NCBI GenBank assembly: GCA_030649345.1
Contig: JAUSKK010000012.1
Span: 1 to 16,541, forward strand
Reading direction: 5' to 3'
Origin: Candidatus Iainarchaeum sp.
GTDB lineage: Archaea > Iainarchaeota > Iainarchaeia > Iainarchaeales > 0-14-0-20-34-12
Length of the DNA stretch: 16,541 bases
Shown here: one piece after another, positions 2,953-12,987 of the stretch
How positions within the stretch are numbered: the first letter of the stretch is position 1
Layout of the letters: each line of letters opens with the position of its first letter
Notes under the pieces: model-generated
What the model saw: the letters and a program-made list of their open reading frames with translations, nothing else
Told to the model about the DNA's origin: nothing
Database searches by the model: none
Position numbers and translations under genes: made by a program

Positions 2953-3046
2953 CTATATTTTTTGCACTGGTTTCGTTGACCCATGTCAGAACCTTAGGTT
3001 CCGACACCTCCTGAGATCAACTCATATTTTTTGCACTGGCTTTGTT
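2953..3046. repeat. Direct duplication of the rad50 3' terminus (2953-2977 vs 3022-3046, offset 69 nt) bracketing a 44-nt hairpin-containing insert (2978-3021)
   Basis: ATATTTTTTGCACTGG is identical in both copies. Read on the minus strand, both copies encode TKPVQKI plus a stop (TAG distal, TGA proximal). The insert carries the hairpin TGTCAGAACC/GGTTCCGACA (2984-2993 / 2997-3006, one mismatch) and, on the minus strand, GGAGGTG (3005-3011). Confidence 0.8.
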
Positions 3047-5394
3047 ATTCCGTTATTGTCTTTGTCTCGTTCTAAAACATACAATGTTCCAGACGCAGCG
3101 TTTTCCATTTCTTTTTCATGGGTAATCAAAAACACTTGGTCTACCAATTCAGGCAAATGTTCTCGCATCATTAAACTTAATCTTGCAATAATATTGGAAT
3201 CTAAATTATGGGTTGGTTCGTCTAAAATTAACCAGCCTAAATTTCTGGCTAAAACAAACGAGAAAGCTATGCGGGTAATCAATGCCGCAGTACTTTTTTC
3301 GCCTCCGCTTAAAGTTCCTTCAATGGGAATCCATCCCAATCCAGCTTTTTTGACTTTTAAATCATAACTGTTATCTGAAATATCTAATTTAATGTCTGTA
3401 AAATCTTTGTACGGATAGATTCGTTCCCATAAATCTTGCATGGCTTGATTAATGGTTTCAATTAAATACAATCTTAATTCGGCTTGCGTTTGCCCTAAGA
3501 CATTCACGAAAATGCTTAATTGTTCTTGGCTGTGTTTTAATTCGTCGATGTGTTCTTTATATTTTTGAACTTCGTTTTGTTTGTTTTTAGTTTCGTATAT
3601 TTTGGCTTCCATTGTTTGACTGAGTTCTGTTAACATAGCAATTTCTTGTGTTATAAATTTTTCTTCTGCCTTGGTTTGTTCTAAGTGAGTCATACTTTCT
3701 TTGTATTCTTTTTCTGAAAAATTTAATGTATTTATTTTCTTTTGAATTTCCTGCAATACTTTTTCTGCGTTCTCTAATTCAGGTTGTTTTTGTTCCAATT
3801 CCAATGCTTGTTCCAGCTCTTTTAGGGTGTGTTCTTTTTCTTTAATTCTTTGTGCACTAAATTCTGTTGCTAATTTTACCATTATTTGCAGGTGTTCTTT
3901 TTCTTGCTCTTCTAAGACGTGCTGTTCTTTTTTTGATTTTTCCAATAATTCAAAGCTTTTTTCCAGCATTTCCAAGGTGTTGGATTGGTTTGCTTTCTTT
4001 TTTAACTCAATTCGCATTTTTTCAATTTCTTGTTTTTGATTGCGTATTGTTTCTTCCAGTAAAGCTATTTGTTCTTTGCATTGTTTTTTTTCATGAACAA
4101 TTTGTTCCAAGTTTTTGTTGGCATCGTCCATTACTTTTTGCATTTCATTTTGTTCTAGTTTTTTTCTGCACACTGGGCAATGCGCCCCGGCTTTTTTTAA
4201 AGAATTCAGGTTGTCATTTTCTTCGCTTTCTTTTCCTTCCAGTTTTCCAAAATTTTCTCTTCCTTGATTGAGTTCCTGGTGAATGTTTTGCAGGTTTTCA
4301 TCTATTCTTTTTAGGGTTTCTTCACTTTCTTCTATTTGTTTTTTTAGTTCTGTTTGTTTGGTGTACAATTCTTGTGTTGTTTTAATTCCTTGCGGAAGTT
4401 GATCTAAAATGGCGTGAATTTCTTTTTTTAATTTATTTAATCCTGCTTGAATTTGATGCTGTTTTTCTTCCAATACTGCTTTTTGTTTTTCTTGTTCTCG
4501 TATTTGTTTTAACTCTTGTGTGGTTTGTTTGATTTTTTCCTCCAGCTGCATCCGTGTTTCTTTCAGATATTTGCTGGTTTGAATTTCTTTTCGTAAATTT
4601 TCTATTTGAATTTGTGTGTGTGTTAGATTTTTTTGCAAGTTTAAAAATTCGGCTTGTTTTTCTTCCCATTTTCTTTGATTCAATACAAGCTTTTCTAGGT
4701 TGGCTGGAAATTCTTGTTTTTGCAAGTGTTTTTTTTGAATGTGTTCTTTAGTTTGCTGGGCTTTTTTTTCTAAATCCTGCAATTCAAGTACATTGATTTG
4801 TTGTTCCATTGCTTGCGCAAATTGTTCTCGTTCTTCAGCTAAAGTTTTGATTTTATTTTTGACTTTTACGGCTAAGCTTCGTGCAGTTTCGTATTTTTCT
4901 AAATCTAAAATAGAGTCAAATTTTTCTTTTCTTTGAGCTGCCGGCAGCCGCAGAAAATAATCGATATTATTTTGTTCGGAATAAATAGCCCGGGCAAATA
5001 AATCGTAATTAAATTCTAAAATATGCTCTAGTTTTTCAGTGACTTCTTTTACTTTTGGGCCTGCAATCAAGCGGTTGTTTTCAAGTAATTTGGCTTGCGG
5101 TGTTTTGTTTCTGTAAATCGTGCGTTCTAAAGAATACGTGTTTTGATTGTGTTTGAATTCGAGTTCAATTTTTGCATAATCTTGTAAATGCGGAGTATTC
5201 ATAATTAATTGTTCGATTTGAGTTTCTCTTCGTTGGATGGCCGGAAAGGTTCCAAACAAGCCATAACAAATAGCATCCATGACACTGGTTTTTCCTGAAC
5301 CGGAATTTCCAATCAATACATTGGTGCCTTGCGTGAATTCAAATTCTGAATCTTTGTGGGTCCGCCAGTTTTCTAGTTTGATTTTAGACAGCAT
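3022..5394 (-). CDS. rad50: DNA double-strand break repair ATPase Rad50
   Basis: 790 aa. It has an N-terminal Walker A (GNSGSGKTS), a long Glu/Lys/Gln-rich coiled coil with a central CxxC zinc hook (AHCPVCRKKL), a C-terminal ABC signature (LSGGEKS) and a Walker B (LILDEPTHNLD). Confidence 0.93.
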   Translation of the reverse strand: MLSKIKLENWRTHKDSEFEFTQGTNVLIGNSGSGKTSVMDAICYGLFGTFPAIQRRETQIEQLIMNTPHLQDYAKIELEFKHNQNTYSLERTIYRNKTPQAKLLENNRLIAGPKVKEVTEKLEHILEFNYDLFARAIYSEQNNIDYFLRLPAAQRKEKFDSILDLEKYETARSLAVKVKNKIKTLAEEREQFAQAMEQQINVLELQDLEKKAQQTKEHIQKKHLQKQEFPANLEKLVLNQRKWEEKQAEFLNLQKNLTHTQIQIENLRKEIQTSKYLKETRMQLEEKIKQTTQELKQIREQEKQKAVLEEKQHQIQAGLNKLKKEIHAILDQLPQGIKTTQELYTKQTELKKQIEESEETLKRIDENLQNIHQELNQGRENFGKLEGKESEENDNLNSLKKAGAHCPVCRKKLEQNEMQKVMDDANKNLEQIVHEKKQCKEQIALLEETIRNQKQEIEKMRIELKKKANQSNTLEMLEKSFELLEKSKKEQHVLEEQEKEHLQIMVKLATEFSAQRIKEKEHTLKELEQALELEQKQPELENAEKVLQEIQKKINTLNFSEKEYKESMTHLEQTKAEEKFITQEIAMLTELSQTMEAKIYETKNKQNEVQKYKEHIDELKHSQEQLSIFVNVLGQTQAELRLYLIETINQAMQDLWERIYPYKDFTDIKLDISDNSYDLKVKKAGLGWIPIEGTLSGGEKSTAALITRIAFSFVLARNLGWLILDEPTHNLDSNIIARLSLMMREHLPELVDQVFLITHEKEMENAASGTLYVLERDKDNNGITKPVQKI

Positions 5395-5442
5395 ATAGTG
5401 TTTGGGTTAGAAAAAGTGTAAAAACAGGTGCGCGAAATTTGC

Positions 5443-5646
5443 TTAGAGTAGACTCATTCCTTCAACTCGCGTGCGTAAATGAAACTTTGTTTCATTGCGC
5501 ATTAAAACCTTGCGGTTTTAATCGCGGGTTGGTAGCACGTGGTGCAGTTAAAATCAGCAGATTTTAACGCACATTAAAACTAATGAGTTTTAATTGTGCT
5601 TCCACTTCGTTTCAGTACCACTAAATTAGAGTAAACTCATTCCTTC
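5443..5646 (+). mobile_element. Expanded (162-nt core, 5464-5625) member of the GC-rich hairpin element family, flanked by a 21-24 nt duplication of the ef1b 3' end (5443-5463 vs 5626-5646)
   Basis: It contains the shared 19-mer GGTTGGTAGCACGTGGTGC at 5527-5545. The outer stem is CAACTCGCG (5463-5471) / CGCGGGTTG (5523-5531). The second stem is GTGGTGC (5539-5545) / GTACCAC (5615-5621). Four nested AT-rich hairpins lie at 5478-5496, 5501-5522, 5547-5568 and 5573-5594. The distal repeat encodes VEGMSLL plus TAA, against the real C-terminus IEGMSLL plus TAA. Confidence 0.6.
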
Positions 5647-5889
5647 GATTTCTACGTCAGCTATTCCTTTGATTTTGCGAAGTTCTGTGGCTAGAGTTTC
5701 AGCTAAACCTTCGTTTCCTTCAGGGACAATAACTCCCAAGCGAATAGCTACTAATCCAAAAGCCATGGGTTCAAATTTTAGGTCCATAAGTTGTCCGATT
5801 TTAATTTTTCGGATTTCAGTTTCAAGTGCTTTTTCAATCCCGGGTTCTTCGGGTGAAACTTTTAAAATAACAAAAGTATCTGCTGGCAT
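5626..5889 (-). CDS. ef1b: Translation elongation factor aEF-1 beta
   Basis: 87 aa, the typical size. EPMAFGLVAIRL and a C-terminal ...VEIEGMSLL match the aEF-1beta family pattern. It lies immediately downstream of a small Zn-ribbon gene, as is common in archaea. Confidence 0.85.
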   Translation of the reverse strand: MPADTFVILKVSPEEPGIEKALETEIRKIKIGQLMDLKFEPMAFGLVAIRLGVIVPEGNEGLAETLATELRKIKGIADVEIEGMSLL

Positions 5890-6159: not shown

Positions 6160-6269
6160 GGGCCAGTGGCGCAACCTGGACAGCGCGTTCGGCTTCGGAA
6201 CGATTTTCATTTTATGTGAAATCGTGTGCAGTTACCGAAAGGTTGTGGGTTCGAATCCTGCCTGGCCCG
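6160..6269 (+). tRNA. tRNA-Arg: tRNA-Arg (anticodon UCG) with a 35-nt intron after position 37; no encoded CCA
   Basis: I folded it by hand. Acceptor stem GGGCCAG/CTGGCCC; D arm GCGC-AACCTGGACA-GCGC; anticodon stem TTCGG (6188-6192) / CCGAA (6235-6239); loop CT-TCG-G...A. The variable region is AGGTT, the T arm is GTGGG-TTCGAAT-CCTGC and the discriminator is G. The 3' end is followed by CTCC, so CCA must be added enzymatically. Confidence 0.8.
6199..6233 (+). other. tRNA intron at the canonical 37/38 position (boundaries ambiguous by 1 nt)
   Basis: 35 nt interrupt the anticodon loop. There is an internal hairpin CGATTTTCA / TGAAATCG. I could not confidently draw a bulge-helix-bulge motif by eye. 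Confidence 0.6.
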
Positions 6270-6274
6270 CTCCC

Positions 6275-6362
6275 CTTTTCTTTTTTCTAAAAAGAAAAGT
6301 GTAAGTTGTTTTCAAATTCCCAAGAATTTGAAAAATTATCAAAATTTGTAGATTTTGATAAT
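6275..6362. repeat. Three consecutive perfect 11-bp AT-rich hairpins between the tRNA 3' end and the cca 3' end
   Basis: Hairpin A is 6275-6285 / 6289-6299 (CTTTTCTTTTT/AAAAAGAAAAG). Hairpin B is 6309-6319 / 6324-6334 (TTTTCAAATTC/GAATTTGAAAA). Hairpin C is 6335-6345 / 6352-6362 (ATTATCAAAAT/ATTTTGATAAT). The T-run of hairpin A starts 6 nt after the tRNA end, which fits oligo-T termination. Confidence 0.75.
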
Positions 6363-6384
6363 TCCCAAAAGAAAAAACCGCAAA

Positions 6385-7758
6385 TTAGTAGTCTAAAAAT
6401 TCTTCCTTTCCTTTCAAGAATTGAGTGAAGTATTTTTTGAATTCAGAATTTTTCTTGCATAAAGCCAATATCTTTTTTTCGTTCAATAATTCGGACTTCT
6501 TTAATGCTTTTTTCAAAGGTTGTTTTTCAATATTATTTTTACATGCATGGACAATTAATTTTTCTACTTGATAAAATTTTCGTAATTTTTCAATCACCCA
6601 GCGTCCTTCTTCAATTCTGGGGCCTGCCAAGCTTTTTTTATGTGCTTTTAAAAACTTTTCAGAATTTTCTTTGTCCGTAACTTCTGGTCCGAAATGATTT
6701 TTTACTTGATCAATGGTTTTGCTATGCATGTCTATGATAATGGCCATGCATTGTTTTTCATCGCTCCAGTCGTCTAATCTATCTACGTTAAATCCATTTA
6801 GTTCTAGCTGAATTTTTAATTTTTTAGAAAATCTTCTTAACTGTCCATGAACAATGTCACTCACCATGTCTGAAGTGTACGGCATGGTTAAAACAATTAA
6901 GTTTTTCTCCGCAGAGTATTTTTTGATTTTATTTAATGGCCACGAATGTTTTTTATTTTCAAAAAAGAAATCCAAAGAAGGTTTTTTCAAATAGGCTCTA
7001 GCGGCGGCAATAAATCGTGCAAATTGATTGTAGGATAACGCACTGGCTACATTTCTATTTTTGTCGGTTGGGTCAACTACAATTAAGTGGTGCTGAAATT
7101 TTTTTCTAGTATCTGTTTCGGTTTCATATTGTTTTTCTAAATCAATGATTGTTTCTTTTTTCCAGATGCTGACTGCTTTTAAACATTTTTCAAAACTTCC
7201 GTATTGGACAATTAATAATTCGACCACATAACCCGGCATGCTGGATACTTTAATTTTAGCTCCATAACAATTAATTCCTTTTAAGAATGATTTCAGCAAG
7301 CGTACTTGGTCTTTCATTTCTTCGGTTAATTTTTTTTCCAGCCAAGCTTGATGAAACGGTGATCTGTCCACAGCACTTTGGAGTTGGTCGGCTTTTTCTA
7401 CTTTGTAACTGGGCACAATTTCAATTTCATATCCTTGAATATTTCCTCGAATATAGGGGTGTTCTGCAAATTGTTGTTTCCAAGTATGGTTTTTGAAGAC
7501 TGCTTTTCCTAATTTGAGTCCTTCTTTTTCAAATTCCACACGAGTTAATTCTTTAGGGTATTGGACAAAAATATCTATGTCTCGATCTTTGCGGACATGC
7601 GTATTTCGAGCTAGACTTCCGCACAATAAAACATTTACATGAGGCCCTTTCATTTTCTTGATTTCAGCCATTACTTTGCTGGCGATTTCCAGTTCTTGCT
7701 GGAGTTCATTCGGCGAAGGCTTGATTTTGCTGATTACTTTTTTTTCCAAGGCATTCAT
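6385..7758 (-). CDS. cca: CCA-adding enzyme (class I archaeal tRNA nucleotidyltransferase)
   Basis: The family pattern is present: an N-terminal helical region, then CGSLARNTHVRKDRDIDIF (the GS...DxD nucleotidyltransferase motif), then the AEHPY and SAVDRSPFH motifs typical of archaeal Cca. I set the start at the ATG at 7756-7758 (MNALEKKV...). The track start at 7806 is a TTG lying inside a promoter-region repeat. Confidence 0.87.
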   Translation of the reverse strand: MNALEKKVISKIKPSPNELQQELEIASKVMAEIKKMKGPHVNVLLCGSLARNTHVRKDRDIDIFVQYPKELTRVEFEKEGLKLGKAVFKNHTWKQQFAEHPYIRGNIQGYEIEIVPSYKVEKADQLQSAVDRSPFHQAWLEKKLTEEMKDQVRLLKSFLKGINCYGAKIKVSSMPGYVVELLIVQYGSFEKCLKAVSIWKKETIIDLEKQYETETDTRKKFQHHLIVVDPTDKNRNVASALSYNQFARFIAAARAYLKKPSLDFFFENKKHSWPLNKIKKYSAEKNLIVLTMPYTSDMVSDIVHGQLRRFSKKLKIQLELNGFNVDRLDDWSDEKQCMAIIIDMHSKTIDQVKNHFGPEVTDKENSEKFLKAHKKSLAGPRIEEGRWVIEKLRKFYQVEKLIVHACKNNIEKQPLKKALKKSELLNEKKILALCKKNSEFKKYFTQFLKGKEEFLDY

Positions 7759-7791: not shown

Positions 7792-7893
7792 TATCTTTGT
7801 TTCCAATTGAATGTCTTATTTAACACTCAATACTCCGGAACATGCAAAAAGATATTTTTGTTTCCAATGGGTGTCTTATTTAACACTCAACAC
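7792..7893. repeat. Imperfect direct repeat of about 42 nt (7792-7833 vs 7853-7893) in the divergent cca / ATPase promoter region
   Basis: TAT[C/T]TTTGTTTCCAAT, then 4-5 variable nt, then an identical 18-mer GTCTTATTTAACACTCAA, then [T/C]AC. The period is 60-61 nt. Each unit contains TGT-N10-ACA dyad symmetry around a TATTTAA core. Confidence 0.8.
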
Positions 7894-9518: not shown

Positions 9519-9523
9519 GATTT

Positions 9524-9659
9524 TTATTTCAAACTTTTTTTTATTTCTTTTTCCAGTCTTTCAACCGCGGTGGCGGTTGGTAGCACGTGGTGCTTTCGCT
9601 TTGCTACAGCACCACTTTCTTTATTTTAATGTTTTTTTTATTTCTTTTTCCAGTCTTTC
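9524..9659 (+). mobile_element. GC-rich two-hairpin element (58-nt core, 9563-9620) flanked by a 39-nt duplication of the taw3 3' end (9524-9562 vs 9621-9659)
   Basis: Stem 1 is CAACCGC (9562-9568) / GCGGTTG (9573-9579). The shared 19-mer lies at 9575-9593. Stem 2 is GTGGTGCT (9587-9594) / AGCACCAC (9608-9615). The distal repeat encodes ERLEKEIKKSLK plus TAA, against the real C-terminus ERLEKEIKKTLK plus TAA (36 of 39 nt identical). The distal copy starts 5 nt after the ATPase stop codon. Confidence 0.65.
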
Positions 9660-11057: not shown

Positions 11058-11071
11058 AATAATTTAATTAA

Positions 11072-11206
11072 TTAGCCCAATTTTTTTCCAACACCAAACC
11101 GCGGGGCCATGCCCCTCAGTTTTAGGTTAATCCTGATCCCTGATTGCAGTTCTGTTGAACTGCAGTACTTTGAAATTTGTTTTTTTAGTCTAATTTTTTT
11201 CCAACA
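11072..11206 (+). mobile_element. Diverged member of the hairpin element family (91-nt core, 11094-11184) flanked by a 22-nt duplication of the elp3 3' end (11072-11093 vs 11185-11206)
   Basis: The left terminus CAAACCGCGGGGC compares with CAACCGCGGTGGC in the taw3 copy. The right terminus CTGCAGTACTTT compares with CAGCACCACTTT. Internal hairpins are GGGGC/GCCCC (11103-11107 / 11111-11115) and ATTGCAGTTC/GAACTGCAGT (11143-11152 / 11157-11166). The distal repeat encodes VGKKLG plus TAA, against the real VGKKLD plus TAA. Confidence 0.55.
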
Positions 11207-12987
11207 TATATTCCGTCTTTTTGATAACCTAACTTGTAATAATATTCTCTTGCACCTACACCTGCAATGACTAAAAGTTTTTTGCAGTCCAATTCTTCGC
11301 TGGCAATCTTTTCAGCTGTCTCTAGCAATTTTTTCCCCCATCCTTTGTGCTGCATGACTTGCTTTCCTAATAATTGAGTATCCAAAGGAACTGTGGTTCC
11401 AAATACATGGAGTTCTCGAATGCCTGCTGTTTTTGGAGTAATTTCCGGCCGGAATGGTTGTGACGGCAATCGCAAGCGTATGAATCCAAACAATAAATTG
11501 TTTTGTGTGTTTTCTAAAGAAATGAAATATTCTAGTCCTTGGCTGGAGTCATATTTTTCAATTATAATTTCTGCATTCTCTAATCCTGATTCAATTCCTT
11601 GCTTGTAAGAAGAAATTCCTGCTTCTCTACAGCGAATGCATTGGCAAACAATTTTTTTGTTTTTCAATTCTTCTTCCACCAATTGTCTTAAATTGTTTTT
11701 ATTAATTCCAGTGGACGCGAGTTTAACTGGAATGTCTCTTTGCACCCGATGAACTCTGCAGTATTTTTGAATATATTTTTTTCCTTCAGCAATAATTTCT
11801 GCAGCTGCTTCTGTTTCTAAAGGTGTGAATTCTCCGCGTTCCCATAATTTCTGTAAAGGAGTTCCAGGCATGACCATGCAAGGGTAAATTTTCAATCCAT
11901 CCGGCCGATAATTTGGATTGGCAAATAATTCTTGAAACATTTCAATATCTTGTGTTCGATTGCTTAATGGCTGGCCAGGCATAATGTGAAAAACAGTTTT
12001 CAAAAAACTATCCTTGGATAATTGCACAGCTTCCATGGTGTCTTGGATTGTATGGCCACGGTTGGTGTATTTTAATATTTTATCTTGCAGGCTTTGAACT
12101 CCAATTTCGACTCGCGTACAACCCAATTTTAGCATTTGATCTAAGTGTACTTGTTTGCACCAGTCTGGTTTGGTTTCAATGCATAAAGTAACACAACGAA
12201 TCTTCGCATGTTCATTTCGTTGATGTTCGTGTTCTAGATTTAAAATTCCTTTTTCGCTTAATAGTTTGTTTTTAATTTCTGTTCTAACTTTGGGATCGTG
12301 TTCATTTAAAGGCAAATTAAAATATTCTGAAAATTTTTCGAAGTCAATTTCTTGGGTTTCTGAATTGTAAAATTTTTCTCCAAAATCATTCATGGCTTTA
12401 AACGAACCCGTAATAAATTCTTCTTGATATCCTTTCGGGAAACTGGGGAATGTTCCGCCCATGACAATGAGTTCTACTTTGTCGGCTGTATGGCCTGTGG
12501 ATACGTATTGCGTTAATCGATTAATGGTTTGAAGATAGGCATCATAGTCATTCAAGATTGCGCGCATGCTAGCAGGTTCGTTTCCAGTATAACTTTTAGG
12601 AATGTCTCCAAAAAAACTATTTAAGCCACCTGGACAATAAATACAAGTTCCATGTTGGCAATTGATAGGCTTGGTCATAATGGCAACTGGCGTAACTCCG
12701 CTGAGAGTTCGCACTGGCTTAATGCCCAATATTTTGCTGAGTTGTTTAAAGTTTTTTCCAGTATATGCTAAAATATCAGGGTCTGAAGGCATTTCTGTTA
12801 AGTTTAATTCATGGCATAAATCCATTTTGAGTCTGTTAAGTTGTCGTTTGTTTTGAATTTGCCCAGAACCAATAGCTTCGACAATTGTCTGTGCAATTCT
12901 TCGTATTTTGTCTTGTTTCTCAACCGCGGTCTCGGTTGGTAGCACGTGGTGCTTAACAGCACCACTGTCTTTGTTTTGTTTCTGCAT
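11185..12987 (-). CDS. elp3: Elp3-family tRNA uridine(34) modification enzyme (radical SAM + GNAT acetyltransferase)
   Basis: 600 aa. It has the radical-SAM cysteine cluster CQHGTCIYCPGG, a conserved TIM-like core (VELIVMGGTF, RVEIGVQS) and a C-terminal GNAT region (QHKGWGKKLLETAEKIA). Residues about 5-25 are encoded by the inserted element at 12906-12983. Confidence 0.92.
   Translation of the reverse strand: MQKQNKDSGAVKHHVLPTETAVEKQDKIRRIAQTIVEAIGSGQIQNKRQLNRLKMDLCHELNLTEMPSDPDILAYTGKNFKQLSKILGIKPVRTLSGVTPVAIMTKPINCQHGTCIYCPGGLNSFFGDIPKSYTGNEPASMRAILNDYDAYLQTINRLTQYVSTGHTADKVELIVMGGTFPSFPKGYQEEFITGSFKAMNDFGEKFYNSETQEIDFEKFSEYFNLPLNEHDPKVRTEIKNKLLSEKGILNLEHEHQRNEHAKIRCVTLCIETKPDWCKQVHLDQMLKLGCTRVEIGVQSLQDKILKYTNRGHTIQDTMEAVQLSKDSFLKTVFHIMPGQPLSNRTQDIEMFQELFANPNYRPDGLKIYPCMVMPGTPLQKLWERGEFTPLETEAAAEIIAEGKKYIQKYCRVHRVQRDIPVKLASTGINKNNLRQLVEEELKNKKIVCQCIRCREAGISSYKQGIESGLENAEIIIEKYDSSQGLEYFISLENTQNNLLFGFIRLRLPSQPFRPEITPKTAGIRELHVFGTTVPLDTQLLGKQVMQHKGWGKKLLETAEKIASEELDCKKLLVIAGVGAREYYYKLGYQKDGIYVGKKLD
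12906..12983 (+). mobile_element. Compact member (48-nt core, 12921-12968) of the hairpin element family inserted in frame in the elp3 5' coding region, flanked by a 15-nt direct repeat (12906-12920 vs 12969-12983)
   Basis: Stem 1 is CAACCG (12921-12926) / CGGTTG (12933-12938). The shared 19-mer lies at 12934-12952. Stem 2 is GTGGTGCT (12946-12953) / AGCACCAC (12958-12965) with loop TAAC. The repeat offset is 63 nt, or 21 codons. The reading frame stays open across it (..MQKQ-NKDSGAVKHHVLPTETAVEKQ-DKIRR..). Confidence 0.65.

Follow-up and report, generated by a model that had tools for sequence, protein, structure and literature searches.

The locus studied here raises the question of why the last codons of ef1b are found twice upstream of rad50, 183 nt apart from start to start, and of what lies between the two copies. 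In the window, i.e. the whole stretch of 16,541 nt that was analysed, a 21-nt direct repeat is present as TTAGAGTAGACTCATTCCTTC and, closer to ef1b, as TTAGAGTAAACTCATTCCTTC (20 of 21 positions matching), and its sole mismatch is a synonymous leucine change (TTA/CTA). The copy closer to ef1b is the true end (IEGMSLL*) of the ef1b ORF, which runs over 5626-5889 on the minus strand and corresponds to Pfam EF1_GNE. A sequence-only reading of this DNA had called the other copy, which spells VEGMSLL*, a ghost C-terminus, and had placed 162 nt with a shared 19-mer between the repeats; both statements were verified, coordinates and sequence included. With the ATG of rad50 at 5394, also on the minus strand, the ef1b-rad50 spacer measures 231 nt here; without the insert and one copy of the repeat it would measure 48 nt. 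The ghost C-terminus is a target-site duplication resulting from insertion, and the 162 nt bracketed by the two repeat copies (insert A, or copy A of its family) are in our judgement probably a small, non-coding and non-autonomous mobile element that entered the short ef1b-rad50 spacer of an uncultured, Iainarchaeota-like DPANN archaeon, the 21-nt ghost being its duplicated target.

This interpretation was strengthened by the remainder of the window (Table 1). The 19-mer GGTTGGTAGCACGTGGTGC occurs three times, against none expected (200 shuffles, up to three mismatches allowed), and defines a family of three small, non-coding copies (A, B and C) of 49-162 nt within 16.5 kb, all on this one contig; some of their reading frames are open, yet none of the copies possesses an ORF of its own. 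The base element, inserted at least three times in the contig, is a G+C-rich double hairpin of about 50 nt with the ends (C)AACCGCGG...GGTTGGTAGCACGTGGTGC...GCACCACT plus three variable bases, AAA, TTC or GTC, which are found at one junction only. The folds of copies B and C comprise two stem-loops each, and copy B reaches 58% G+C versus 35% for the window. The repeats of copy B duplicate the 3' end of TYW3 together with its stop codon, and copy C resides in frame within the N-terminus of ELP3 (MQKQNKD-SGAVKHHVLPTETAVE-KQDKIRR); ELP3 homologues start where the downstream repeat of copy C stands, without the 22-residue N-terminal extension. The repeats of the related insert E duplicate the 3' end of ELP3 (true GKKLD*, ghost GKKLG*). 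In the unrelated insert D, the original TAG stop is kept by the ghost, and the real rad50 end is made of T from the repeat and GA from the insert. Copies A, B, C and E share one orientation. The duplications measure 14, 21 and 40 nt in the A/B/C family, with a different target each time, and 19, 23 and 33 nt in the related events. Mismatches in the ghost copies amount to 5-18%, which fits unconstrained duplicates of differing ages.

Table 1. Features of the window, with their coordinates, strand and main characteristics.
Feature	Position	Strand	Description
Hairpin insert D, unrelated	2955-3046		46 nt (2978-3023) at the rad50 3' end; 23-nt repeats, 21/23 identical
Native ef1b-rad50 spacer	5395-5442	-	Contains CTGTTTTTACAC, the TATA-like box of rad50; homologue of the 36-nt L007 spacer CTGTTTTTAGAC
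Ghost copy of ef1b 3' end	5443-5463		Target-site duplication, promoter-proximal copy; the minus strand reads (V)EGMSLL*
Domain 1	5463-5531	+	Outer stem 1, CAACTCGCG (5463-5471) with CGCGGGTTG (5523-5531), 9 pairs, one G-U; encloses nested insert 1
Composite double-hairpin element A	5464-5625	+	162 nt; apparent B-like base element with two nested inserts
Nested insert 1 (putative)	5472-5522	+	51 nt, AT-rich; CGCG on either flank
Family core 19-mer GGTTGGTAGCACGTGGTGC	5527-5545	+	Identical across copies A, B and C
Domain 2	5539-5621	+	Outer stem 2, GTGGTGC (5539-5545) with GTACCAC (5615-5621), one G-U; encloses nested insert 2
Nested insert 2 (putative)	5546-5599	-	54 nt; same type of unit as nested insert 1, inverted
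True ef1b 3' end	5626-5646		EGMSLL and stop TAA (5626-5628); gene-proximal copy of the target-site duplication
Family copy B	9523-9659	+	57-nt element (9563-9619); 40-nt repeats 9523-9562 and 9620-9659, 37/40 identical
Related insert E	11061-11206	+	80 nt (11094-11173); 5' terminus AACCGCGG common to A, B and C; 33-nt repeats, 27/33 identical
Family copy C	12907-12983	+	49-nt element (12921-12969); 14-nt repeats 12907-12920 and 12970-12983, 13/14 identical

Insert A is longer than the other family members, and its fold indicates how this may have come about. The orientation of the element was set by the shared 19-mer on the plus strand, which makes it antisense to both ef1b and rad50. RNAfold reproduced the layout drawn from the letters alone, i.e. 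two outer stems with one G-U pair each and four inner hairpins. As that reading had stated, insert A has the outer architecture of the other family members. The four inner hairpins are a GC-clamped hairpin around AATGAAAC/GTTTCATT (5478-5496) and ATTAAAACC/GGTTTTAAT (5501-5522) in nested insert 1, then GTTAAAATC/GATTTTAAC (5547-5568) and a GC-clamped hairpin around ATTAAAACT/AGTTTTAAT (5573-5594) in nested insert 2. C5463 may double as the first base of stem 1, leaving the boundary uncertain by 1 nt. Folding was strong both as RNA (-58.8 kcal/mol, z = -7.0) and as DNA (z = -9.1 for the plus strand, -8.4 for the minus strand). Perfect-hairpin matches with a stem of at least 8 bp numbered 20 in the window versus a mean of 2.1 in shuffles, several of the 20 being alternative registers of one hairpin, and insert A accounted for 7 of them.

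The inner hairpins had been described as expansions of the loops; they are better read as nested insertions, with one AT-rich double-hairpin unit of about 50 nt per loop. Nested insert 2 is identical to the reverse complement of nested insert 1 at 39 of 56 positions, with an alignment score of 16 versus -4.4 +/- 3.4 in shuffles (maximum 8). GTGC stands before nested insert 2 and recurs as its last four bases, and a remnant of a B-like loop persists in domain 2 (5600-5614, 10 of 15 positions identical to the loop of copy B). Judged from these alignments, insert A appears to be a composite, made of a B-like base and of such units in opposite orientations in both loops, and it would be 162 nt long with four inner hairpins because a unit entered each of the two loops. 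The nested units could also derive from an internal inverted duplication, rather than from two separate insertions.

Relatives provide the empty state of these sites. It had been predicted that they would show a short, insert-free ef1b-rad50 spacer of about 48 nt, and the spacer is indeed 36 nt long in L007 and 61 nt in L009, two syntenic Iainarchaeota genomes; the TATA-like box of rad50 is conserved in the syntenic relatives. In L007, moreover, TYW3 and T2SSE abut, and ELP3 and its neighbour overlap by 8 nt. No empty allele of copy A itself turned up; these empty sites come from relatives in which ELP3 is only about 59% identical, the best value obtained for this protein, and the best ef1b relative among GTDB representatives is 35% identical. 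A closer comparison is offered by L007 and L006, which are about 99.99% identical over 21.7 kb, save for an 82-nt G+C-rich hairpin insert in L007. This insert lies in the 5' leader of ABCE1, with a perfect 19-nt duplication of the start of that gene, and a third assembly breaks exactly at its edge. The difference between L007 and L006 points to recent mobility of a similar kind in a relative. Comparable inserts were absent from the other Iainarchaeota-like genomes, L009-L013 (46% G+C) and L014-L021 (29% G+C), so the phenomenon is lineage-restricted.

Taken together, the ghost gene end, the differing duplicated flanks, the empty sites and the polymorphic insertion in a relative argue for a mobile element and not for a host RNA gene. 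The family apparently belongs to an undescribed group of tiny archaeal mobile elements with unusually long and variable target duplications. Against this reading, terminal inverted repeats are absent and the duplication length is not fixed, and we know of no characterised prokaryotic transposition mechanism that fits the family. No gene for a transposase, reverse transcriptase, Cas1, HUH enzyme, TnpA or RAYT was found within the 16.5-kb window.

From a mechanistic point of view, we tentatively propose a scheme whose parts, taken jointly, we give somewhat less than an even chance. An enzyme whose gene lies at another place in the genome would move the elements in trans, recognising the folded hairpins or the conserved terminus and not terminal inverted repeats. 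The element would be joined to the target where its two strands are broken, 14-40 bp from each other, and the filling of the gaps would then produce a long and variable duplication. The hairpins would be kept for the needs of the mobility machinery and not for an RNA function in the host. In such a compact genome, only those insertions whose duplication restores a gene end, a stop codon or a promoter would survive, a filter that would explain why every copy lies exactly at a gene boundary. Insertion of A would be near-neutral for ef1b and rad50: the stop codon of ef1b is retained, and the 48 nt that natively precede rad50 are intact, TATA-like box included. An influence on the rad50 promoter, which had been suggested earlier, finds little room here: the core promoter CTGTTTTTACAC sits in the native spacer below the ghost, undisrupted by the insert, and effects on rad50 are therefore probably minor.

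A broader proposition, which we regard as doubtful, is that Iainarchaeota-like DPANN archaea host a hitherto undescribed class of structure-defined, tiny double-hairpin elements that lack inverted terminal repeats and integrate by a mechanism new to prokaryotes. Among candidate routes, a small RNA might be copied by target-primed reverse transcription, which would make it an archaeal SINE, or a structure-specific nuclease/ligase might act where the nicks are widely staggered; either would yield variable target duplications of 14-40 nt. If this were true, it would be the long duplication itself that enables a parasite to settle in a genome nearly devoid of intergenic DNA, by restoring, on either side of the insert, whichever gene end, stop codon or promoter was interrupted.

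DPANN archaea have genomes among the most compact of cellular organisms and, to our knowledge, very little is known of their transposable elements. The present case indicates that even genes that abut or overlap can be separated by a parasitic insertion, if the duplicated target completes the end of each neighbour. Long variable duplications combined with a lack of inverted repeats are unlike known prokaryotic transposases, which makes the family a concrete starting point in the search for a new insertion enzyme or pathway: the ends are defined, there are several copies, and one insertion is polymorphic in a marine population. Such elements also leave gene ends behind as ghosts, extend genes in frame (ELP3) and introduce mini-ORFs upstream of genes (ABCE1 in the relative), all of which mislead gene callers and break metagenome assemblies.

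Among the alternatives, we consider it unlikely that the family consists of retroposed small RNAs, SINE-like, with a reverse transcriptase acting in trans to copy a structured transcript into a nicked target. Such retroposition is one particular form of the mobile-element interpretation. Eukaryotic SINEs move by target-primed reverse transcription, with target duplications varying from about 10 to 40 nt. Like them, the elements described here are short, structured, non-coding units with defined ends and variable target duplications, for which mobilisation in trans is proposed. The spread of duplication lengths (14, 19, 21, 23, 33 and 40 nt) would be accounted for by the spacing of the second nick, the three variable bases at one junction resemble non-templated addition, and the lack of inverted terminal repeats is in line with this route. 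Unlike SINEs, however, they bear no A-rich or simple-repeat tail, are unrelated to tRNA, 7SL and 5S RNA (Rfam negative), match no known small RNA, and have no partner reverse transcriptase within the 16.5 kb inspected; the G-U evidence on which strand was the RNA is, moreover, contradictory between element families.

It is rather improbable that no dedicated element exists, and that the inserts arose by template switching during replication or repair, or by ligation of structured flaps. A polymerase that copies a hairpin-forming donor and resumes upstream on the original template would duplicate the flank, with an irregular length, and a single step would yield perfect hairpins with coupled changes. 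The heterogeneity of the inserts fits as well, since neither D nor E nor the L007 insert is related in sequence to A/B/C. However, three independent insertions are exactly alike in their left end and in their right end (CACCACT plus 3 nt), and a fourth, insert E, carries the left terminus AACCGCGG. Such common ends across insertions argue for a defined mobile unit and not for random donor segments.

The sequence-only reading had seen in these hairpins the signature of selection on a folded RNA. We find it improbable that a host-selected structured RNA or cis-regulatory element (3'-UTR stabiliser, terminator/insulator or antisense small RNA), with helices conserved for a cellular function of the fold, is at work. 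The folding as RNA is indeed very strong, both outer-stem G-U pairs are tolerated on the plus strand only, and four of the five inserts in the window stand directly after stop codons. The compensatory changes invoked earlier do exist in the three inner 22-nt hairpins, where 3 of 9 pairs show two-sided changes and all 27 cells are paired; 19 of 500 shuffles did as well. By contrast, the outer family stems show no two-sided change among copies A, B and C, and the argument from compensation to RNA selection thus fails for both of them. Their G-U pairs arise from one-sided C-to-T changes, of which the alignment count shows one, the other falling in stem-1 columns that are gapped in B and C.

Position and distribution also speak against a host RNA: copy C lies within a coding region, the polymorphic L007 insert is in a 5' leader, syntenic relatives manage without the insert, and a host function would leave the duplicated flanks unexplained. 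The possibility that a known structured RNA is involved had been raised as a check, and Rfam 15 returned no match to the insert at the gathering score, with only chance-level matches at E up to 10; the best match over element A reached 17.5 bits versus a gathering score of 100, and only a tRNA at 6160-6269 passed the threshold in the window. A fragment of rRNA, tRNA, SRP or RNase P RNA was rejected on the same grounds, Rfam being negative even for the isolated segment. No intrinsic terminator was predicted by a simple hairpin-plus-T-run scan, and no U-tract follows the hairpins on either strand.

A derivative of an IS200/IS605-type single-strand transposon (palindrome-associated), or a REP-like element moved by a Y1 HUH transposase, is very unlikely. 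Subterminal hairpins without inverted terminal repeats would suit it, as would the single orientation of A, B, C and E, strand bias being known for such elements. However, IS200/IS605-type elements insert without target duplication, beside a fixed target of 4-5 nt; every copy here is flanked by duplications of 14-40 nt, and the window yielded neither TnpA nor RAYT. Finally, the contig arrangement at insert A is no assembler artefact: the SNP-like mismatches between ghost and real copies might evoke strain variants collapsed into a false tandem arrangement, which is hardly credible given that an independent Logan assembly (SRR13727527) is 100% identical across 5,048 nt including copies A and D, that the whole B structure (137 nt) probably falls below one read length, that the inserted hairpins would be left unexplained, and that the pattern recurs in an unrelated sample set.

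Other candidates were rejected. For a diversity-generating retroelement, the mismatches are not adenine-specific (T/C in A; C/G, A/T and A/G in B, on the gene-sense strand), and the repeats are far shorter than typical variable regions. A bulge-helix-bulge intron does not fit, as the insert boundaries lack complementarity. Ectopic CRISPR spacer integration or a casposon would be expected to give a fixed duplication length, with inverted repeats in the case of the casposon, and the att sites of a site-specific integrase do not fit a flank that differs at each copy.

Further copies were sought in several collections. The exact 19-mer gave no match in genome contigs or viral contigs, and two in metagenome contigs, in high-G+C contexts and without the rest of the element; by a rough estimate this is about the number expected by chance, and we do not regard these two matches as genuine. 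Degenerate patterns of the family and of the L007 insert gave no match in viral contigs, and nothing matched the 162-nt element in phage or plasmid records. A six-frame concatenated peptide query returned nothing at E <= 10, being underpowered to the point of missing a known 16-residue identical match in ELP3. A sharpened protein profile gave one spurious match, to a repetitive protein (P0125), among 1.84 billion representatives, and no candidate in a word-indexed database.

Comparison with known systems helps to place the family. Double-hairpin elements of fungal mitochondria were reportedly described in Allomyces by Paquin, Laforest and Lang in 2000. Yeast mitochondrial GC clusters (PMC4478555) and the repetitive hairpin-forming elements of sponge mitochondria (PMC2800124) were also considered. 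Like these mitochondrial elements, the archaeal ones are G+C-rich units of tens of bases in an A+T-rich compact genome, are non-coding, form one or two stem-loops, are sporadically distributed, and are found in intergenic positions and occasionally within genes. Two stem-loops per unit, as in copies B and C, and nesting of units, as in copy A, are shared with the mitochondrial double-hairpin elements and GC clusters, a likeness that is a functional analogy only. The archaeal copies differ in lying among chromosomal genes and not in an organelle, in sharing no sequence similarity with the mitochondrial elements, and in having A+T-rich nested units. The flanking repeats of yeast GC clusters, moreover, are only 2-3 nt long (AG or ACT; PMC4478555), whereas duplications reach 14-40 nt here.

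Long direct repeats have been surveyed for insertions of restriction-modification genes and IS, and these likewise measure tens of bases with a length varying per event. The restriction-modification cases involve no further mobile element, and the repeats often overlap the 3' end of the neighbouring gene. What is inserted in that survey is either kilobases of genes or a complete IS with transposase and inverted repeats, unlike the non-coding hairpin unit of 45-160 nt found here; no archaeal case passed the selection of that survey.

The elements further resemble MITEs and Rickettsia palindromic elements (PMC10969869) in being small, multicopy, non-autonomous and strongly structured, and the latter also reside in frame in genes (PMC10969869), as copy C does in ELP3. 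They are unlike MITEs in lacking terminal inverted repeats, a short duplication of fixed length and an identifiable parent IS. Indeed, the termini of B and C (CAACCGCGG... and ...GCACCACTNNN) do not complement each other and remain unpaired in the predicted folds; with such ends and an unfixed duplication length, the elements fall outside the classical definition of MITEs. Stem 1 starts at the first base and stem 2 stops 4 nt before the last, so that hairpins stand near the ends in place of inverted repeats, as in IS200/IS605-derived and REP/RAYT elements.

The 162-nt segment lying between ef1b and rad50 (copy A) is a mobile double-hairpin element, nested and non-autonomous, and the second, ghost end of ef1b is the 21-nt target-site duplication that goes with it. 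Copy A is bracketed by a direct repeat (TTAGAGTAGACTCATTCCTTC, 5443-5463, and TTAGAGTAAACTCATTCCTTC, 5626-5646; 20/21 identical), of which the upper one forms the genuine ef1b terminus (gene at 5626-5889, minus strand, ...IEGMSLL*) and the lower one encodes VEGMSLL*. Inside it lies the 19-mer GGTTGGTAGCACGTGGTGC (5527-5545), which occurs three times in the window, where none was expected. The fold proposed earlier, two outer stems with one G-U each and two hairpins within each, was recovered as the minimum-energy fold (-58.8 kcal/mol, z = -7.0) and, as DNA, the two strands fold about equally (z = -9.1 and -8.4). All statements of the sequence-only reading about the sequence of copy A were correct. 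Between the ghost stop and the rad50 ATG, the window has 48 nt carrying CTGTTTTTACAC, with a counterpart, CTGTTTTTAGAC, in the 36-nt ef1b-rad50 spacer of a relative, L007 (GCA_002687735.1); this spacer measures 61 nt in a more distant one, L009. The ghost and the 48 nt therefore represent the ancestral junction, to which 183 nt (162 + 21) were added. The ef1b gene kept its own stop codon despite the insert, and rad50 has an intact core promoter, its TATA-like box and some 15 nt upstream being native. Copy A could nevertheless stop transcription running on from ef1b or change contacts further upstream.

Copies B and C, which carry the same 19-mer, are short versions of this element, each bracketed by its own, different duplicated flank (see table), which for B comprises the last codons and stop of TYW3. 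The left end common to the three is (C)AACCGCGG (AACTCGCG in A) and the right end is GCACCACT (GTACCACT in A), followed by three variable bases (AAA, TTC, GTC) and then by the duplication. The ELP3 frame is open through copy C (MQKQNKD-SGAVKHHVLPTETAVE-KQDKIRR, window 12907-12983), an in-frame residence reminiscent of Rickettsia palindromic elements (PMC10969869); the first ~22 ELP3 residues are an addition, since most aligned homologues begin at the start of the downstream repeat. A GTG within copy C is a possible alternative ELP3 start codon. The conserved core can also form a competing mini-hairpin, AGCAC-GTG-GTGCT, around a CACGTG palindrome (5533-5549, 9581-9597, 12940-12956); since this hairpin and the 5' arm of stem 2 overlap, alternative pairings are possible, and a DNA-parameter fold of copy A pairs AGCAC with GTGCT at 5596-5600.

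Inserts in the window and the blocks nested in copy A
Feature	Position	Length (nt)	Position with repeats	Flanking direct repeats	Location
Insert D (hairpin)	2978-3023	46	2955-3046	23 nt	rad50 stop
Copy A	5464-5625	162		21 nt	between ef1b and rad50
Block 1	5472-5522				extra material in loop 1 of A
Block 2	5546-5599				extra material in loop 2 of A
Copy B	9563-9619	57		40 nt, 37/40 identical	TYW3 end
Insert E	11094-11173	80	11061-11206	33 nt	after ELP3 stop
Copy C	12921-12969	49		14 nt, 13/14 identical	within ELP3 start

A simple screen, which required direct repeats of 14 nt or more at a distance of 25-300 nt around a G+C-rich or strongly folding segment, separated five such insertion events (A to E) cleanly from background repeats in 16.5 kb. 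The repeats of insert E duplicate the ELP3 stop region; the insert begins with AACCGCGG, as A, B and C do, and is otherwise different in sequence, a single common terminus that hints at a larger superfamily in which one end is the defining feature. Insert D differs from A, B and C in sequence and has the same anatomy. Its insertion point falls within the original TAG stop of rad50, which the ghost retains, and the live stop is now TGA, made of the last T of the repeat and GA, the first two bases of the insert.

Alignment with B and C showed that the base element was retained in A, together with a 15-nt remnant (5600-5614) identical to the loop of B at 10/15 positions. What had been described as loop expansion is better read as two nested, A+T-rich double-hairpin blocks. 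Each comprises a plain 9-bp hairpin and a G+C-clamped hairpin, in opposite order, and block 2 aligned to the reverse complement of block 1 with 39/56 identity and a score of 16 (300 shuffles: -4.4 +/- 3.4, maximum 8). Copy A is therefore a composite, with either two inverted copies of an A+T-rich double-hairpin unit nested in its loops, or one insertion and an internal inverted duplication. CGCG is present on both sides of block 1, while GTGC stands just before block 2 and again as its last four bases; short duplications may account for these 4-nt repeats, and the CGCG repeat, being its own reverse complement, also lengthens stem 1.

The helices of copy A had been interpreted as a sign of selection on a folded RNA or single-stranded DNA. 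Among copies A, B and C, no two-sided change was found in comparable outer-stem pairs; the one change counted was one-sided, C to T giving a G-U, and the other G-U, that of stem 1, falls where the stem cannot be aligned without ambiguity. In the three inner 22-nt hairpins, all 27 of 27 positions are paired with two-sided changes at three of the nine pairs, so that structure was maintained in the nested units; for three sequences, such pairing was equalled by 19 of 500 shuffles. Single-step template switching or the needs of the mobility machinery explain this pairing equally well, and the G-U evidence on the folded strand is inconsistent, pointing to the plus strand for A and to the minus strand for D. 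The sequence-only observation was confirmed and its interpretation is right in part; the covariation evidence does not suffice to claim selection on a folded RNA. Rfam gave nothing above chance on any insert, including when the segment was searched alone.

Gene order is conserved in the Iainarchaeota relatives L005-L013. In L007, no nucleotide separates TYW3 from the T2SSE gene, and ELP3 and the gene converging on it share 8 nt. L007 differs from L006 (ERZ11848503) by three substitutions over 21.7 kb and contains an extra 82-nt G+C-rich insert (7098-7217; 7199-7217 in L006), which has two hairpins of 6-7 bp and is accompanied by a perfect 19-nt duplication of the region around the ABCE1 start codon. 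The difference shows directly that this lineage continues to gain short hairpin inserts with long duplications. A third assembly (TARA, L008) stops exactly at the edge of the 19-nt duplication; a break at that point would be expected from a site that is polymorphic in the sample. The promoter-proximal ghost ATG of L007 opens a 32-codon mini-ORF, whose TAG lies 2 nt before the real ABCE1 ATG. No such insert was found in L009-L021, two more distant groups. In L014 (29% G+C; 21288-21485), as in L015 and L016, direct repeats of 16 nt (88% identical) that include the start codon of the adjoining DUF3467 gene flank an intron-containing tRNA gene; these repeats may be due to chance in A+T-rich DNA.

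A defined unit was inserted, 14-40 nt of target were duplicated and units were nested, and survival is confined to gene boundaries, at which both adjoining genes stay intact thanks to the duplication. The main rival that involves no dedicated element is template switching; that three or four independent insertions have invariant termini speaks against it. From a mechanistic point of view, the mobile element may be mobilised in trans by an enzyme recognising its hairpins or the conserved AACCGCGG terminus, and would integrate at two nicks of wide and variable spacing, followed by fill-in; variable duplication length and three variable bases at one junction recall target-primed reverse transcription, although this contig, to which the search was confined, has no reverse transcriptase gene. 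The element had no match in phage, plasmid or viral collections, has no inverted terminal repeats, showed no terminator-like site in a simple scan, and does not qualify as a classical MITE, an IS200/IS605 derivative, a SINE or a member of any Rfam family; a diversity-generating retroelement was ruled out because mismatches between repeats are not adenine-specific.

This genomic parasite is of interest mainly for its unexplained long, variable duplications and for having succeeded where hardly any intergenic DNA is available. Long, variable target duplications are a trait of IS1634. Such duplication is described for restriction-modification gene units and Mycoplasma IS1630, in a survey where no archaeal case survived selection (PMC2853133); it is not known from tiny non-coding units. 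The nearest functional analogues, double-hairpin elements and GC clusters of fungal mitochondria and hairpin elements of sponge mitochondria, also nest and merge, but their flanking repeats are 2-3 nt long, versus 14-40 nt here (PMC4478555, PMC2800124). A limited literature search found no description of such elements in archaea.

The window is a complete contig of 16,541 nt from an uncultured archaeon. It has a G+C content of ~35%, 5,048 nt of the contig are matched exactly by the Logan assembly of run SRR13727527, and its ELP3 protein is the NCBI MAG entry MDO8427898.1, the nearest sequences to which are 59% identical and include Candidatus Iainarchaeum sp. (phylum Iainarchaeota, DPANN). Every gene that could be recognised is a housekeeping gene (ef1b, rad50, Dus, CCA-adding enzyme, T2SSE-type ATPase, TYW3, ELP3, eRF1/Pelota-like, S17e, Rpb6). 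Unlike in syntenic relatives, Dus (2251-2943) lies between S17e and rad50, and rad50 (3022-5394) has 790 residues versus 683; the repeats within the coiled-coil part of rad50 are background of low complexity. The only Rfam match over the window was a tRNA gene with a ~38-nt intron (6160-6269, 49.5 bits), missed by ARAGORN. Three consecutive perfect A+T-rich hairpins (6275-6363, stems 11-12 bp) occupy the gap from this tRNA to the end of the CCA-adding enzyme gene and resemble the nested units of copy A in style, not in sequence. A ~60-nt tandem duplication (7792-7890) covers the promoter and start region of the latter gene, with repeats of 19 nt (exact) and 16 nt (94%) and ~22 nt of differing sequence separating the units; it may stem from the insert-forming process, as an old or atypical case, or be a plain duplication.
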